From IMG/VR virus record IMGVR_UViG_3300023179_007063, positions 33,088-97,087 of that record: a stretch of 64,000 bases of DNA. One strand, written 5' to 3'. This document shows, in pieces, positions 28,460 to 53,159 of this stretch (position 1 is the first letter of the stretch; every line of letters begins with the position of its first letter). The notes below the pieces were generated by a model that searched no databases, was not told the DNA's origin, and saw only the letters and a program-made list of their open reading frames with translations. The DNA is from a virus. Both the position numbers and the translations under genes were made by a program.

Positions 28460-28810
28460 ACTTCAGCGTTGTTTCATTTCATGAGATAGTTCTTATAGAA
28501 TTATCGACACTGCAATCCTGAAAGTATGAGTCCAATTTTTTCCATCATGTCAAAAATGCATGCCCACGAGATATGGACAAACGATGCAAAAAGACTGGAA
28601 ACAATTGCTTCGATAGGGTATAGAATCCTCGTCATACGGGAGAGCGAATACAAGAATGGATCTTGGGTTGATAAGCTCGACCGATGGCTGGAGGAAAATG
28701 GAAAAGAAAAAGATATTGATACTGTCAGACCATCCGTGAACGACCACAGCTCAGCGGATGTAAAATTGGGTGAATTGCTGGAAACTCGTGGGATAGACAC
28801 CACAGCGTGA
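28460..28810 (+). pseudogene. Frameshifted remnant of a Vsr/EDxHD-type (DUF559-like) homing endonuclease
   Basis: Pieces in shifting frames read VLIEL / HCNPE / YESNFFHHVK / MHAHEIWTNDAKRLETIASIGYRILVIRESEYK. No intact 5' end. The last frame runs through GT exon 1 into the intron. Confidence 0.65.
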
Positions 28811-30214
28811 CTGGAAACGGTGAGCGCGAAGGTCAAAAAGTCTTACTATACGACAATCAGCAGCCAAGCTCCTAAGGAGAAATTCTGGAGAAGGTTCAGA
28901 GACTACGGTTAGCCTAAATCAAAAAGACACGGCAATGATCCGACAGCGCCCAACACCAAATCAAGTATGGTGATGATATAGTCCAAAACTTTTTGTAAAG
29001 TGAGCACCTCCGGAGTAGGCACACAGGCCCGATGGCTTGTATCAGGTCTGATAGAAACAGGCAAGTATTCGTTCAGATGCTTCGGCGGAGCGATTAAGCA
29101 TGACAACTACGATACGGTCGTAGTCAACCCTGACTTCATCATCAAGCCTACAAACGGCTTCGGTGATAGAAATCTTCTACGCAAGACGCTGGCTCAGGTG
29201 AAGCCTGATGCCCTGATGCTGTTTACTGACCCACGTTTCTTCATGTGGGTCTGGGAGATGGAGGACGAGATCCACCAGATGTGCCCAATCGTCTATTGGC
29301 ACTTGTGGGACAATCCTCCCTGGCCTGAGTTCAATCGTCACATCTATGAGTCGACCGACCTCGTCAACTGCATCAACTATCCGACATACAAGATGGTACA
29401 CGAGAGGTTCCCAGAGAAGACAAACTACATTCCTCACGCTGTTCCCGAAGATCTATACAAGCCGCTTCCGAAAGAAGACGTTAGGAAGTTCAAAGCAGCG
29501 CTCTTAGGCAATGAAAAGGTCGACCACTTTACGCCGATGTACGTCAGTCGTAATGCGAGGAGAAAAGTTCCGAGCGACATCATAGAGTCGTGGAAGATTT
29601 TCTTGGATGACCTTGAGGCAAAGTACGGCCACAGGAAGGCGACTCTGATCCTCCACACAGACCCACTTGATCAAGAGGGAACAAATTTATTTATGCTTGT
29701 CGACCTCTTTGGCGTGAAAGACAACGTCGTCTTCTCCAAGGAGAGAATAGGCTTCCAGGAGATGAGCACCCTCTACAACGTTTGCGACTGTGTCGTCAAC
29801 CGGTCTATGAATGAGGGCTTCGGTCTACCTGTTCTAGAGTCGATTCTATGTGGCAAGCCGCCGATAGTTGTGAAGACAGGCGGTTTGACACGACAGGTAT
29901 ACGACGATGAGACAGGTGAAAAATACGGTATCGGTCTGGACCCTGAAGTTCGAACTCTCGCTGGTAATCACTTCGTTCCCTACATCTATGAAGACTTCGT
30001 GTCTCACAAGACTTTCGCAAATGCATTCATGGAGATGTATGAACTCGGTCCTGAGGGGAGAGCGGCACTTGGCAACAAGGCAAGAGAGAGAGCGAAGAAA
30101 GAGTATAATCTCAAGAAAGTCGTCTCTGACTGGGACAACACTCTCGATTCAACGATCTCTAGGTGGAGAGATGATAGAAAGTCCTTCGACAGATGGAGCA
30201 AGATAGAACTATGA
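28698..30214 (+). CDS. GT4 glycosyltransferase split by a group I intron (exon 1 28698-28737, exon 2 29001-30214; 417 aa spliced)
   Basis: GGAGG RBS + ATG 28698. Splicing gives MEKKKILILSDHP-L-STSGVGTQAR; C-half has RNARRK and NEGFGLPVLES. Unspliced exon 1 stops immediately (CCG TGA). Confidence 0.9.
28738..29000 (+). ncRNA. Group I self-splicing intron (263 nt, no internal ORF)
   Basis: P AATTGCTGGAAA (28773), Q AATCAGCAGCC (28855), R GTTCAGAGACTA (28894), S GATATAGTCC (28975). P1: exon CATCCGT pairs with GCGGATG (28754-60), U.G at the splice site. P10: GCTCA/TGAGC. P3: TTGGGTG/CGCCCAA. Terminal G at 29000. Confidence 0.92.
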
Positions 30215-51580: not shown

Positions 51581-52063
51581 TTAATTAAGTAACTTCTTTT
51601 CAGGTAGTTTCGTCTTGCCGTCCACGACGTCGTCGAACAAATCGGACAAATCAAGCTTAGGTTTGTTCCTGCCCTTTATCTGAGTTACTTTGAGCAGCTT
51701 GTGGCGCTTACCGTTCCACGGTATCGTTCCACCGGACACCCATCCGCTATACGTCTCGACATAGGATCCGCCGATGGCGTTCGTTGGTGTCTGTATTCCG
51801 TAGTGCTTCGCGAGCCGAATTCTCTCAAACATCTCCGACTCAGGCGTCTCGACGAAAGAGGAGTTATCACCGTCGTATATGTACTCCGCACCCATCCACT
51901 CGACCTCCAAGAAGTCGTCGCGTTCTAGCGTTACGTTGCAGCAGTACTCTCCGTCTGGCTCGGGTGTCGACATGCCGAGGTAATAGACAGCTTCGGGAGA
52001 GTCGAACAACGTGAAAGACCACCCTTTGGCTGGGGTCTTCAGGGTCAAACGTACTTTCTTCAT
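51581..52063 (-). CDS. Hypothetical protein
   Basis: 160 aa, convergent with the fibre gene. Confidence 0.55.
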   Translation of the reverse strand: MKKVRLTLKTPAKGWSFTLFDSPEAVYYLGMSTPEPDGEYCCNVTLERDDFLEVEWMGAEYIYDGDNSSFVETPESEMFERIRLAKHYGIQTPTNAIGGSYVETYSGWVSGGTIPWNGKRHKLLKVTQIKGRNKPKLDLSDLFDDVVDGKTKLPEKKLLN

Positions 52064-52082: not shown

Positions 52083-52685
52083 CTATGAAGCTTTCGTATC
52101 TAGATACTTCTTCTTGATGACAGTTCGAAGTCCGGGATTGACACGAAGCGCCTCAGGCATAATGCGGTGTCGGATGAGGTTCCGCATGTACCTCTCGTCT
52201 GTGTTAGACGCGTCATCGATCCACTGCAAGTCTCGTTTTTTCGCCCAAGAGATGAGCTCAGACTTCGGAGTGACGAGGAAGGGTCGAACCACGTTTCCCC
52301 TCCTATAAGGAAGAAGCTTCGACGCACCGTGGAGAGATGAGAAGATCCATGTCTCGACAGCGTCGTCGAGGTGGTGGGCTGTGACGATAGGATCTTCGAA
52401 CTGAGTCAAAAACTCGTAGCGACAGTTGCGCCAGTACTCTTCCTGAGACTCGTCGGACGGCTTGGGGCCGGTGATGTGTCCGACGGTGAGGGGGACCTCA
52501 CGGTCAAGCGCGAAACTCTTTGCAAAGTTCAAGGCCTCATCGGAGGTCTTGGTTCCGTGATGGAAAAAGGCCAAGGAAACGTCTCGTTTACCATTTATGA
52601 GGAAGTCCGTAATTGCTACGGAATCAACTCCTCCTGAGAAGGCTACGATACATTTCCTTGGAAGACTTCCGATGAATCGAATCAT
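52083..52685 (-). CDS. tilS: tRNA(Ile)-lysidine synthetase, minimal (catalytic domain only, 200 aa)
   Basis: AFSGGVDS, RYEF, TAHHLDDAVET, RPFL, WIDDASN, RNLIRH. True start ATG 52685; the longer track ORF overlaps the tRNA. Confidence 0.92.
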   Translation of the reverse strand: MIRFIGSLPRKCIVAFSGGVDSVAITDFLINGKRDVSLAFFHHGTKTSDEALNFAKSFALDREVPLTVGHITGPKPSDESQEEYWRNCRYEFLTQFEDPIVTAHHLDDAVETWIFSSLHGASKLLPYRRGNVVRPFLVTPKSELISWAKKRDLQWIDDASNTDERYMRNLIRHRIMPEALRVNPGLRTVIKKKYLDTKAS

Positions 52686-52690
52686 TGTCT

Positions 52691-53005
52691 TGGTGGAACC
52701 ATTCGGACTTGAACCGAAAACCCGCTGATTCACGTTTGTGTTAATTTCTTAACTCCGTGGACTATATCATCATCCTCAGCTTTACCTGTTAGGATGTCGG
52801 ACGCTTTATCCCGTATTACGTTGAAAGTTTCGTTCAACACCGGGTAGTCTCTACACCTTTCTACCACGCTTGGTAGACTTGGCTCGGGATTACCTTATCT
52901 TGCGACTTAGGCTTCCCCGAATTCATCCGATTTTCGACAATCATTTCTGATTGAAGTCACCTTTTGCGATGAGTCAGCTGCTCTAACCGATTGAGCTATG
53001 GTTCC
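52691..53005 (-). tRNA. tRNA-CAU, probably Ile2, split by a group I intron (exons 53005-52969 and 52730-52691)
   Basis: Spliced sequence GGAACCATAGCTCAATCGGTTAGAGCAGCTGACTCAT|AATCAGCGGGTTTTCGGTTCAAGTCCGAATGGTTCCACCA folds to a full cloverleaf with encoded CCA. No initiator features. Ends 5 nt upstream of tilS. Confidence 0.9.
52731..52968 (-). ncRNA. Group I intron in tRNA anticodon loop (238 nt, no ORF)
   Basis: P1: exon UCAU with GUGA (U.G). P3 TCGGATG/CGTCCGA; P4 TTCGGG/CCCGAG; R GTGTAGAGACTA; S ATGATATAGTCC; P9 GTTAA-GAAA-TTAAC; P9.0 ACG/CGT; terminal G. Confidence 0.93.
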
Positions 53006-53033
53006 GTATTGAAAGTTGTGTTTATTCCTTTCG

Positions 53034-53116
53034 TGCTCAGGGTGGGAATCGAACCCACACGGGAGTTACCCCGGCTGATTTTGAGTCAGCTGCGTCTGCC
53101 GTTTCGCCACCAGAGC
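53034..53116 (-). tRNA. tRNA-Leu(CAA), CCA not encoded
   Basis: GCTCTGGTGGCGAAACGGCAGACGCAGCTGACTCAAAATCAGCC...GGGTTCGATTCCCACCCTGAGCA; long variable arm; one U-U mismatch in the acceptor stem. Confidence 0.9.
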
Positions 53117-53130
53117 GTCTCTACCTCTTC

Positions 53131-53159
53131 ATCATAAGGTAGCTGTGCTCTAGTTTACA
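53131..53159 (-). promoter_or_regulatory. Sigma70-like promoter for tRNA-Leu / tRNA-CAU / tilS
   Basis: TGTAAA-17 nt-TATGAT, ending 15 nt upstream of tRNA-Leu. Confidence 0.55.

Follow-up and report, generated by a model that had tools for sequence, protein, structure and literature searches.

A split tRNA(CAU) gene directly upstream of tilS

The subject of this report is a gene group on the minus strand of a 64,000-nucleotide (nt) stretch of viral DNA, hereafter the window, which forms the 3' 64 kilobases (kb) of a 97,087-nt IMG/VR viral contig (IMGVR_UViG_3300023179_007063, positions 33,088 to 97,087). The contig is 29% complete according to CheckV, and is thus part of a jumbo-phage genome of about 300 kb. 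The group opens with a tRNA-Leu(CAA) gene (53116-53033) that is detected by ARAGORN and scores 52.6 bits with the Rfam tRNA model; 27 nt downstream lies a tRNA gene with the anticodon CAU that is interrupted by a 238-nt group I intron, and 5 nt after the CCA of that tRNA comes the ATG of tilS (52685-52083), which encodes a putative lysidine synthetase of 200 amino acids. The initial annotation of this DNA had described the same features, and was correct in their coordinates and order, in the length of the intron and in the spacing. TilS converts C34 to lysidine so that a CAU tRNA reads AUA as isoleucine. We consider it likely that these genes constitute a phage-borne AUA-decoding module into which a mobile group I intron has been acquired.

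Exon 1 of the split gene (53005-52969, 37 nt) comprises the acceptor strand GGAACCA, the D arm, the anticodon-stem strand GCUGA, the loop bases CU and the anticodon CAU, the last base being U36; its 3' end, CUCAU, was read both by hand and by script. Exon 2 (52730-52691, 40 nt) begins with A37 and A38 and continues through the stem strand UCAGC, the variable loop, the T arm and the acceptor strand to A73 and an encoded CCA. Splicing in silico yields a canonical 77-nt cloverleaf with the anticodon CAU in the loop CUCAUAA. The junction can be placed between CAU and AA because an intronless homologue runs through it: in a syntenic relative (L013; L numbers denote comparison loci) the uninterrupted tRNA (L013:2096-2170) is near-identical to the spliced product and reads GACUCAUAAUCAGC across the junction. 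The order tRNA-Leu(CAA) then tRNA(CAU) also recurs in L013 and L014.

The split gene was undetected by default ARAGORN and by the Rfam tRNA model, as had been foreseen in the initial annotation, which proposed a run of ARAGORN with introns or of Infernal as a check. In intron mode ARAGORN does find the intron, and labels the gene tRNA-Gln(CUG) with the intron displaced by 2 nt. This call was rejected: it would make the -1 base a C, and in the intronless homologue CAU is followed by AA.

The intron and its fold

The intron (52968-52731) contains no open reading frame (ORF) and folds into helices P1 to P9, with GNRA loops at L2, L5a and L9 and a terminal G at 52731. It matches Rfam model RF00028 over about 52980-52738 with 87.8 bits against a gathering threshold of 50 (E 4.7e-21), the match extending over model positions 1-253 and being full-length. 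At the 5' boundary CUCAU is followed by CG, and the 3' end reads ...ACGUG. An internal guide, GGUGAC (52956..52961, minus strand), forms P1 by pairing its G-U-G-A with U36-A35-C34-U33 of exon 1, the pair next to the splice site being a U.G wobble; until splicing, the guide keeps all three anticodon bases, C34, A35 and U36, in pairs. P7 and P3' are separated by a 35-nt P7.1-type hairpin (52844-52810) that has the outer stem CCCG/CGGG, an inner stem of six base pairs and a conserved GUAAUA bulge, and that appears as a 39-nt insert relative to the Rfam model. A convincing P10 pairing could not be drawn from the window sequence.

The P1-P9 structure, which was drawn from the window alone, was examined in a small set of six homologous phage pre-tRNAs, the window among them. 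Standard pairing is found in 95.2% of cells and both-sided change in 34 of the 64 pairs; the covariation score is 0.526, compared with 0.199 for shuffled alignments (none of 500 shuffles was as high) and 0.07-0.10 for slid controls. Covariation is present in every helix, and in the two helices of the P7.1-type hairpin (numbers 9 and 10) three of four and four of six pairs, respectively, have changed on both sides. The P1 U.G wobble is kept in 6/6 homologues, and in a tRNA-Thr(UGU) relative (L212) the guide has changed from GUGA to GCAA, which offsets both anticodon changes. The introns of the window and of two further viral loci, L080 and L183, are 9-19% apart and retain every helix through compensatory changes. 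The intron is real and probably active.

A one-domain TilS

The protein encoded by tilS carries the PP-loop motif SGGVDS together with the motifs HHLDD..ET and DxSN..RNxIRHxxxP. It scores 118 bits with TilS_N TIGR02432 (cut-off 93.6) and 114.9 bits with PF01171, and only about 20 bits with the QueC, LarE and TtcA models. With the model of the full-length enzyme, NF007942, it reaches 83.5 bits against a cut-off of 606, and Pfam searches detected neither the substrate-binding domain PF09179 nor the TilS_C domain PF11734 in the 200 residues. It can be aligned with the N-domains of the solved enzymes 1WY5, 1NI5 and 3A2K, and stops about 12 residues past the catalytic domain. An AlphaFold2 model built with 29 homologues has a predicted local distance difference test score of 93 and a predicted template modelling score of 0.87, and the six top-ranked Foldseek matches are TilS without exception (TMq 0.79-0.88 over the whole phage protein), TtuA and LarE ranking below them. 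Against the TilS catalytic domain the predicted fold has a TM score of 0.86-0.88.

The one-domain form is no truncation, because homologues of about 200 amino acids make up at least 984 clusters, nearly all with lengths of 196-216; the longer relatives found are canonical TilS alone, at 31-34% identity. An identical TilS is also encoded on a 218-kb contig. A GTG-started version of the ORF, of 216 amino acids (start 52733), overlaps exon 2 and was discarded as an artefact, M1 of the ATG form being nearly invariant in the family. Also set aside was the idea that a conserved ORF of 160 amino acids located 19 nt after tilS (51581..52063, minus strand) encodes a detached TilS C-domain: it has no match in Pfam or PHROG and no detectable similarity to TilS_C, and it is kept only in the nearest relatives, ORFs 38-42% identical to it coming after tilS in L006 and L013/14 only.

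Solved TilS enzymes of type II (Aquifex aeolicus; 1WY5, 2E21, 2E89) and type I (Escherichia coli, 1NI5; Geobacillus kaustophilus, 3A2K, with tRNA) share with the phage protein a complete PP-loop N-domain and its motifs at 27-34% identity, but the phage protein has neither PF09179 nor PF11734. The C-terminal domains of the solved enzymes contact the body and acceptor stem of the tRNA. Closer in architecture are the TilS proteins of the Pseudomonas jumbo phages MIJ3 and PA5oct, which are one-domain proteins of the same family (about 194-203 amino acids; 43% identity across 97% of the length), whereas neither phage has a tRNA or an intron within 3 kb of tilS. The paper on MIJ3 (2019; PMC6892783) stated that TilS had 'not been reported in phages', gave its function as unknown and did not connect it with a CAU tRNA or with AUA decoding.

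Linkage of tilS to tRNA(CAU) genes and the demand for AUA decoding

Linkage was assessed in 41 viral loci with genes for relatives of the window TilS. Six differently arranged groups of these have a tRNA(CAU) gene no more than about 1 kb from tilS. The tRNA gene immediately precedes tilS in L007-10 and precedes it by about 1 kb in L011-12 and in L013-14; it comes directly after tilS in L029, in L030-31 and in L036. An additional arrangement occurs in L183, where a tilS whose product is 43% identical is followed, about 0.8 kb further on, by a tRNA(CAU) that is split by a homologous intron of 235 nt. That the two genes are found together repeatedly, and in either orientation, is the strongest evidence that enzyme and tRNA would form a functional pair. 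Usage of the codon concerned is substantial: over the 97-kb contig ATA occurs 20.6 times per 1000 codons and makes up 35% of isoleucine codons, figures for the phage that agree with the impression of frequent ATA codons gained earlier by eye. AGA, at 20.8 per 1000, is the main arginine codon across the contig.

Some of the linked loci have peculiarities of their own. The CAU tRNAs beside tilS at L007:2899-2984 (the same in L008 and L009) and L011:1891-1973 (the same in L012) are 83-86 nt long and have a long variable arm, an odd shape that resembles class II. A two-piece (permuted) transfer-messenger RNA of the alpha-/betaproteobacterial type lies 0.5-2 kb upstream of tilS in L030 (879-1267), L031, L032 (892-1274) and L036 (2125-2484), and in L030/31 tilS is surrounded by a cluster of nine tRNA genes.

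Related introns in phages

A blastn search with the intron against 50,697 phage records returned relatives, spanning 87% of the intron, in unannotated gaps of the Klebsiella and E. coli jumbo phages Muenster, KP13-7, RCIP0023, phiKp_21 and TH47. In Muenster (MT708547, ~302826-303137; L047:2457-2768) a tRNA(CAU) is split after CAU by a group I intron of 104 bits with a GGUGAC guide; its acceptor, GGCCCCU, is like that of E. coli tRNA-Ile2, and the gene, which is not annotated, occupies a gap in the tRNA cluster with tRNA-Ser on one side and tRNA-Asn on the other. Further split tRNA(CAU) genes of this kind are present in cultured jumbo phages of the Alcyoneusvirus type (L048, from phiKp_21, and the matches H32, H34, H35 and H37). 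Scans of IMG/VR added split tRNA(CAU) genes in L080, L183 and L181, the L080 intron being 90.6% identical to that of the window. A search of IMG/VR with the junction pattern gave 119 loci, one of which (L080) is genuine; the earlier junction-pattern matches L050-52 arose by chance.

The intron family is not confined to CAU tRNAs. Related introns interrupt phage genes for tRNA-Thr(UGU) (L212:1187-1502; insertion at 36/37, guide GCAA) and tRNA-Asp(GUC) (L185:1365-1668, the same as L225), and the family also occurs in phage tRNA(CAU) genes with no tilS nearby. Among open-access papers and bioRxiv preprints we found none that describes a group I intron within a phage tRNA gene; a review from 2014 (PMC3984707) describes phage group I introns as tending towards protein-coding genes.

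Comparison with bacterial tRNA introns

Bacterial relatives were sought in 185,579 prokaryote genomes with an intron core pattern, which returned mostly tRNA introns. Ile2.5Ug is one of four classical bacterial tRNA intron classes, all of subgroup IC3, in an account that leaves phages unmentioned (Williams 2020, 10.1101/2020.01.27.920355). The window intron has the insertion between positions 36 and 37 and the GUG guide of the Ile2.5Ug class, but not the IC3 architecture, in which P7 leads directly to P3' with no P7.1 or P7.2. The resemblance to the Azoarcus tRNA-Ile intron asserted in the initial annotation, with the same site and GUG guide and an extra P7.1-type stem in the phage, is borne out by the betaproteobacterial introns that were fetched (Polynucleobacter and Neisseriaceae; L239, L329, L347). 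Like the window intron, introns of the Azoarcus type are inserted between U36 and A37 of a CAU loop, use a GUG guide with a U.G wobble, are identical in their P7 and J6/7 sequence (GGUGUAGAGACUA ... UAGUCC), and are small and ORF-free with GNRA loops on P2 and P9. In contrast, the betaproteobacterial introns pass from AGACUA straight into GACGGCACCC (P3'), where the phage intron has its 35-nt hairpin; they are 54-58% identical to the window intron and fall in a separate clade of the tree; and they reside on bacterial chromosomes in exons of the GGGCCC type rather than in a phage tRNA with a GGAACCA acceptor. The betaproteobacterial clade, with 100/100 support, leaves out all phage introns.

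A second bacterial group does have the hairpin. In Gammaproteobacteria, tRNA-Ile2(CAU) genes are split by P7.1-type introns (L240, L261, L262, L269, L270, L319, L320, L333, L335 and L337), the sources being metagenome-assembled genomes of Woeseiaceae, Steroidobacteraceae, Pseudomonadales and Azotimanducaceae; one of the chromosomes measures 6.1 Mb. We know of no paper that treats these introns as a class. They share with the window intron the site, a GGUG guide and a hairpin in the same place, with the outer stem CCUG/CAGG and a conserved UAAU.A bulge, and ARAGORN in intron mode reports all of them as tRNA-Gln(CUG). They differ from it in being chromosomal, in having classic Ile2 exons and in being only 51-56% identical to it, so that the window intron is no closer to the gammaproteobacterial type than to the Azoarcus type. 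A quick tree places the phage introns in a group of their own with moderate support (89/85) and the gammaproteobacterial introns in another (92/99). The proposal that the phage introns are a subset of the gammaproteobacterial P7.1 class was dropped, as neither the tree nor the identities support it and the structural feature alone is common to both. Judged by these comparisons, the phage introns are a distinct branch of the family of introns at position 36/37 of tRNA-Ile2, and the P7.1 hairpin that they have in common with the gammaproteobacterial introns may be ancestral or convergent.

Transcription of the gene group

From a NADAR-domain gene further upstream to the 160-residue ORF after tilS, the genes are tightly packed, with gaps of 5-46 nt. 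A sigma-70 scan found a single promoter-like site on the minus strand, upstream of the NADAR gene (54156-54128), and no credible terminator lies between that site and the tRNAs and tilS. Because of these short gaps and the want of a credible terminator, the tRNAs and tilS can safely be taken to be co-transcribed. The promoter that had been assigned to the front of tRNA-Leu is not upheld, the sigma-70 scan being blank there; by eye the only candidate is a TATGAT with a poor -35 element, which we rejected. Processing of the tRNA 3' end would leave the tilS message a leader of at most 5 nt.

A putative route to AUA decoding

From these data we infer a route that includes co-transcription, splicing of an intron that is itself neutral, formation of lysidine and charging with isoleucine. 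In this scheme tRNA-Leu(CAA), the split tRNA(CAU) and tilS would be made on one transcript, and tilS would have no separate promoter because the 5-nt gap is too small for one. The intron would then fold and self-splice with guanosine, the 5' site lying at the U36.G wobble and the 3' site after the terminal G, and splicing would restore the CUCAUAA loop and release C34 from the guide. The one-domain TilS translated from the same transcript would use ATP and lysine to turn C34 into lysidine, and the host isoleucyl-tRNA synthetase would charge the modified tRNA, which would read AUA. As C34 is paired within P1 of the precursor, the structure implies that splicing must precede any modification of this base. 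A probable reason for the phage to carry its own TilS is that the host enzyme is suited to a rare tRNA or rejects the phage tRNA.

The initial annotation had likewise proposed splicing followed by lysidinylation, within a 'self-contained' AUA-decoding unit. The order of the two steps agrees with C34 being held in P1, and the pairing of tRNA(CAU) with tilS is well founded; the term self-contained is too strong, since host isoleucyl-tRNA synthetase would still be needed. The further proposal, that the two steps provide two checkpoints on AUA decoding, is not supported by comparison with the relatives, which are polymorphic for the intron.

Role of the intron

The tRNA lineage with the GGAACC acceptor is found in three states: intronless in L013/14, with the same intron in the window and L080, and with a different, weaker intron in L006. 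The last of these loci encodes the closest relative of the window TilS (69% identity; tilS at L006:677-1264), and its split tRNA (L006:225-530), which lies upstream of tilS, has window-type exons. Its intron scores 39 bits and has no P7.1, and the sole U/G-compatible junction would give the loop CUCAUGA, with G37, and a P1 in which U-A replaces U.G; the L006 gene may contain a decaying intron or be a pseudogene. A strong terminator hairpin (531-576) follows this split tRNA. In metagenomes, two intronless alleles (L400:362-438 and L417:7-83, both minus strand) have exons identical to those of L080:5172-5490 (minus strand), and such empty sites imply recent gain or loss of the intron; the same scan turned up no exact empty-site allele for the window's own exons. 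Most tRNA(CAU) genes linked to tilS are intronless. The intron is best read as a mobile passenger that would be phenotypically near-neutral, because its presence and type are polymorphic, because empty-site alleles exist and because the family also occupies tRNAs with no tilS nearby.

It could be argued that the intron is instead a regulatory or protective gate, which keeps the anticodon loop locked in P1 until TilS is present or allows the precursor to escape anticodon nucleases. This would fit the pairing of C34, A35 and U36 to the guide, the position of tilS 5 nt away on the same transcript, and the fact that split tRNA(CAU) genes recur in several lineages of phages, in two cases close to tilS. 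Phage tRNAs are also described as countering tRNA-targeting defences (PMC10264068, PMC11555353). However, the majority of tilS-linked tRNA(CAU) genes, including those of the syntenic L013/14, do without the intron, and alleles with identical exons exist in intronless form. In addition, the same intron family is lodged in phage tRNA-Thr and tRNA-Asp genes and in tRNA(CAU) genes that have no nearby tilS, and the mature loop would be an ordinary target for nucleases once spliced. Unmodified CAU tRNA is charged with methionine and reads AUG as methionine; it is thus harmless, and no fidelity checkpoint is needed. Locking of C34 in P1 is common to every bacterial tRNA-Ile2 intron and does not imply regulation. 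A gate of this kind is in our view improbable, and we found no evidence for the splicing checkpoint or for the nuclease evasion suggested in the initial annotation.

A more general form of the argument, that the intron is not neutral but acts as a timing or protection device, the tRNA becoming an AUA reader only once its own modifier is made or the precursor pool being immune to nucleases, appears just as doubtful. Were it true, the repeated capture of the intron by phage tRNA(CAU), tRNA-Thr and tRNA-Asp would reflect selection beyond mobility.

Isoleucine or methionine identity of the split tRNA

With G1-C72 and without GGG/CCC pairs in the anticodon stem, the split tRNA is not of the initiator type; it also has A73 and C34, A35, U36, A37 and A38. 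The best E. coli matches of the spliced form are CAU tRNAs labelled tRNA-Ile in RefSeq, and its best phage matches include CAU tRNAs of T4-like phages at about 81% identity, which have been argued to be tRNA-Ile of the lysidine type (PMC1524935). These T4-like genes resemble the split tRNA in being phage-encoded CAU tRNAs and are among its closest annotated matches, but they have no intron and no accompanying phage tilS, the host enzyme being used. The abundant tRNA(CAU) with a GGGCCC acceptor has an identical anticodon arm, and the related bacterial introns are located in classic tRNA-Ile2 exons. On this evidence it is probable that the split gene specifies a tRNA-Ile2.

Several observations weigh against an AUA-decoding module at this locus. 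Pair 4-69 of the split tRNA is A4-U69 and not C4-G69, the determinant preferred by E. coli TilS; this pair and the U-A at 29-41 resemble the corresponding pairs of E. coli tRNA-Met, and sequence by itself cannot settle between tRNA-Ile2 and elongator tRNA-Met. Many phages with such a TilS lack a tRNA(CAU) closer than 3 kb to the tilS gene. We know of no solved or characterized TilS that is devoid of all C-terminal domains, and the activity and specificity of a bare N-domain are putative. Finally, no promoter or terminator delimits the transcription unit, and the tilS start has no Shine-Dalgarno motif, although such motifs are weak throughout this genome (24% of ORFs against a background of 13%).

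A rival reading is that the split gene is an elongator tRNA-Met and that TilS acts on the host tRNA-Ile2 or on a phage tRNA encoded in the roughly 70% of the genome that was not sequenced. ARAGORN and most annotators call CAU tRNAs Met, the pairs A4-U69 and U29-A41 are like those of E. coli tRNA-Met, tilS occurs without a nearby tRNA in PA5oct-like phages and megaphages, and a contig that is just 29% complete leaves room for other substrates. Adjacency of tilS and tRNA(CAU), however, recurs across lineages and in both orientations, and the tRNAs directly beside tilS are nearly all CAU. Among annotated E. coli tRNAs the best matches are tRNA-Ile(CAU), the anticodon arm matches the GGGCCC-type tRNA(CAU), and heavy use of ATA demands a tRNA-Ile2, not more tRNA-Met. 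A methionine identity is, on balance, a little harder still to credit than a regulatory intron, and we regard it as quite unlikely. That the intron is a decaying relic that no longer splices, the tRNA a pseudogene and tilS a server of other tRNAs would be consistent with the missing homing endonuclease, the unclear P10 and the below-cut-off score and doubtful junction of the L006 intron, but is very improbable given an intact set of core elements that scores well above the cut-off, the -1 U.G and terminal G, the compensated helices of the diverged window, L080 and L183 introns, and exons that retain a perfect cloverleaf.

Implications

Each part of the probable AUA-decoding module has a known precedent, and current understanding is not overturned by it. 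The finding bears on annotation, as split tRNA(CAU) genes lie unannotated in cultured Klebsiella and E. coli jumbo phages, so that tRNA inventories and analyses of codon compensation miss AUA readers, and as ARAGORN in intron mode systematically mislabels these split genes tRNA-Gln(CUG). It also bears on the enzyme. The one-domain TilS, often encoded beside its presumed substrate, would be a minimal natural enzyme-substrate pair, which could be used to probe how a lysidine synthetase separates tRNA-Ile2 from tRNA-Met without the domains supposed to read the acceptor stem.

Genomic setting

Upstream of the tRNAs and tilS the minus strand carries a tRNA-Glu(UUC) gene (54316-54243), a NADAR-domain gene (54054-53575; 108 bits) and a gene for a PTH2-type peptidyl-tRNA hydrolase (53558-53163; 54 bits). 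These three form a small translation and ADP-ribose island flanked by two collagen-like fibre genes on the opposite strand. The full order NADAR, PTH2, tRNA-Leu(CAA), tRNA(CAU), tilS and 160-residue ORF is shared by L013/14. A megablast search of a 6-kb region against phages gave no match. Weak use of Shine-Dalgarno motifs, an intron relative in Runella and matches to Flavobacterium phages hint loosely at a host among the Bacteroidota. The window contains a second group I intron on the plus strand (28660-29003; 77.2 bits with Rfam), in which AGACUA is again followed by an insert and the P2 region contains a long one.

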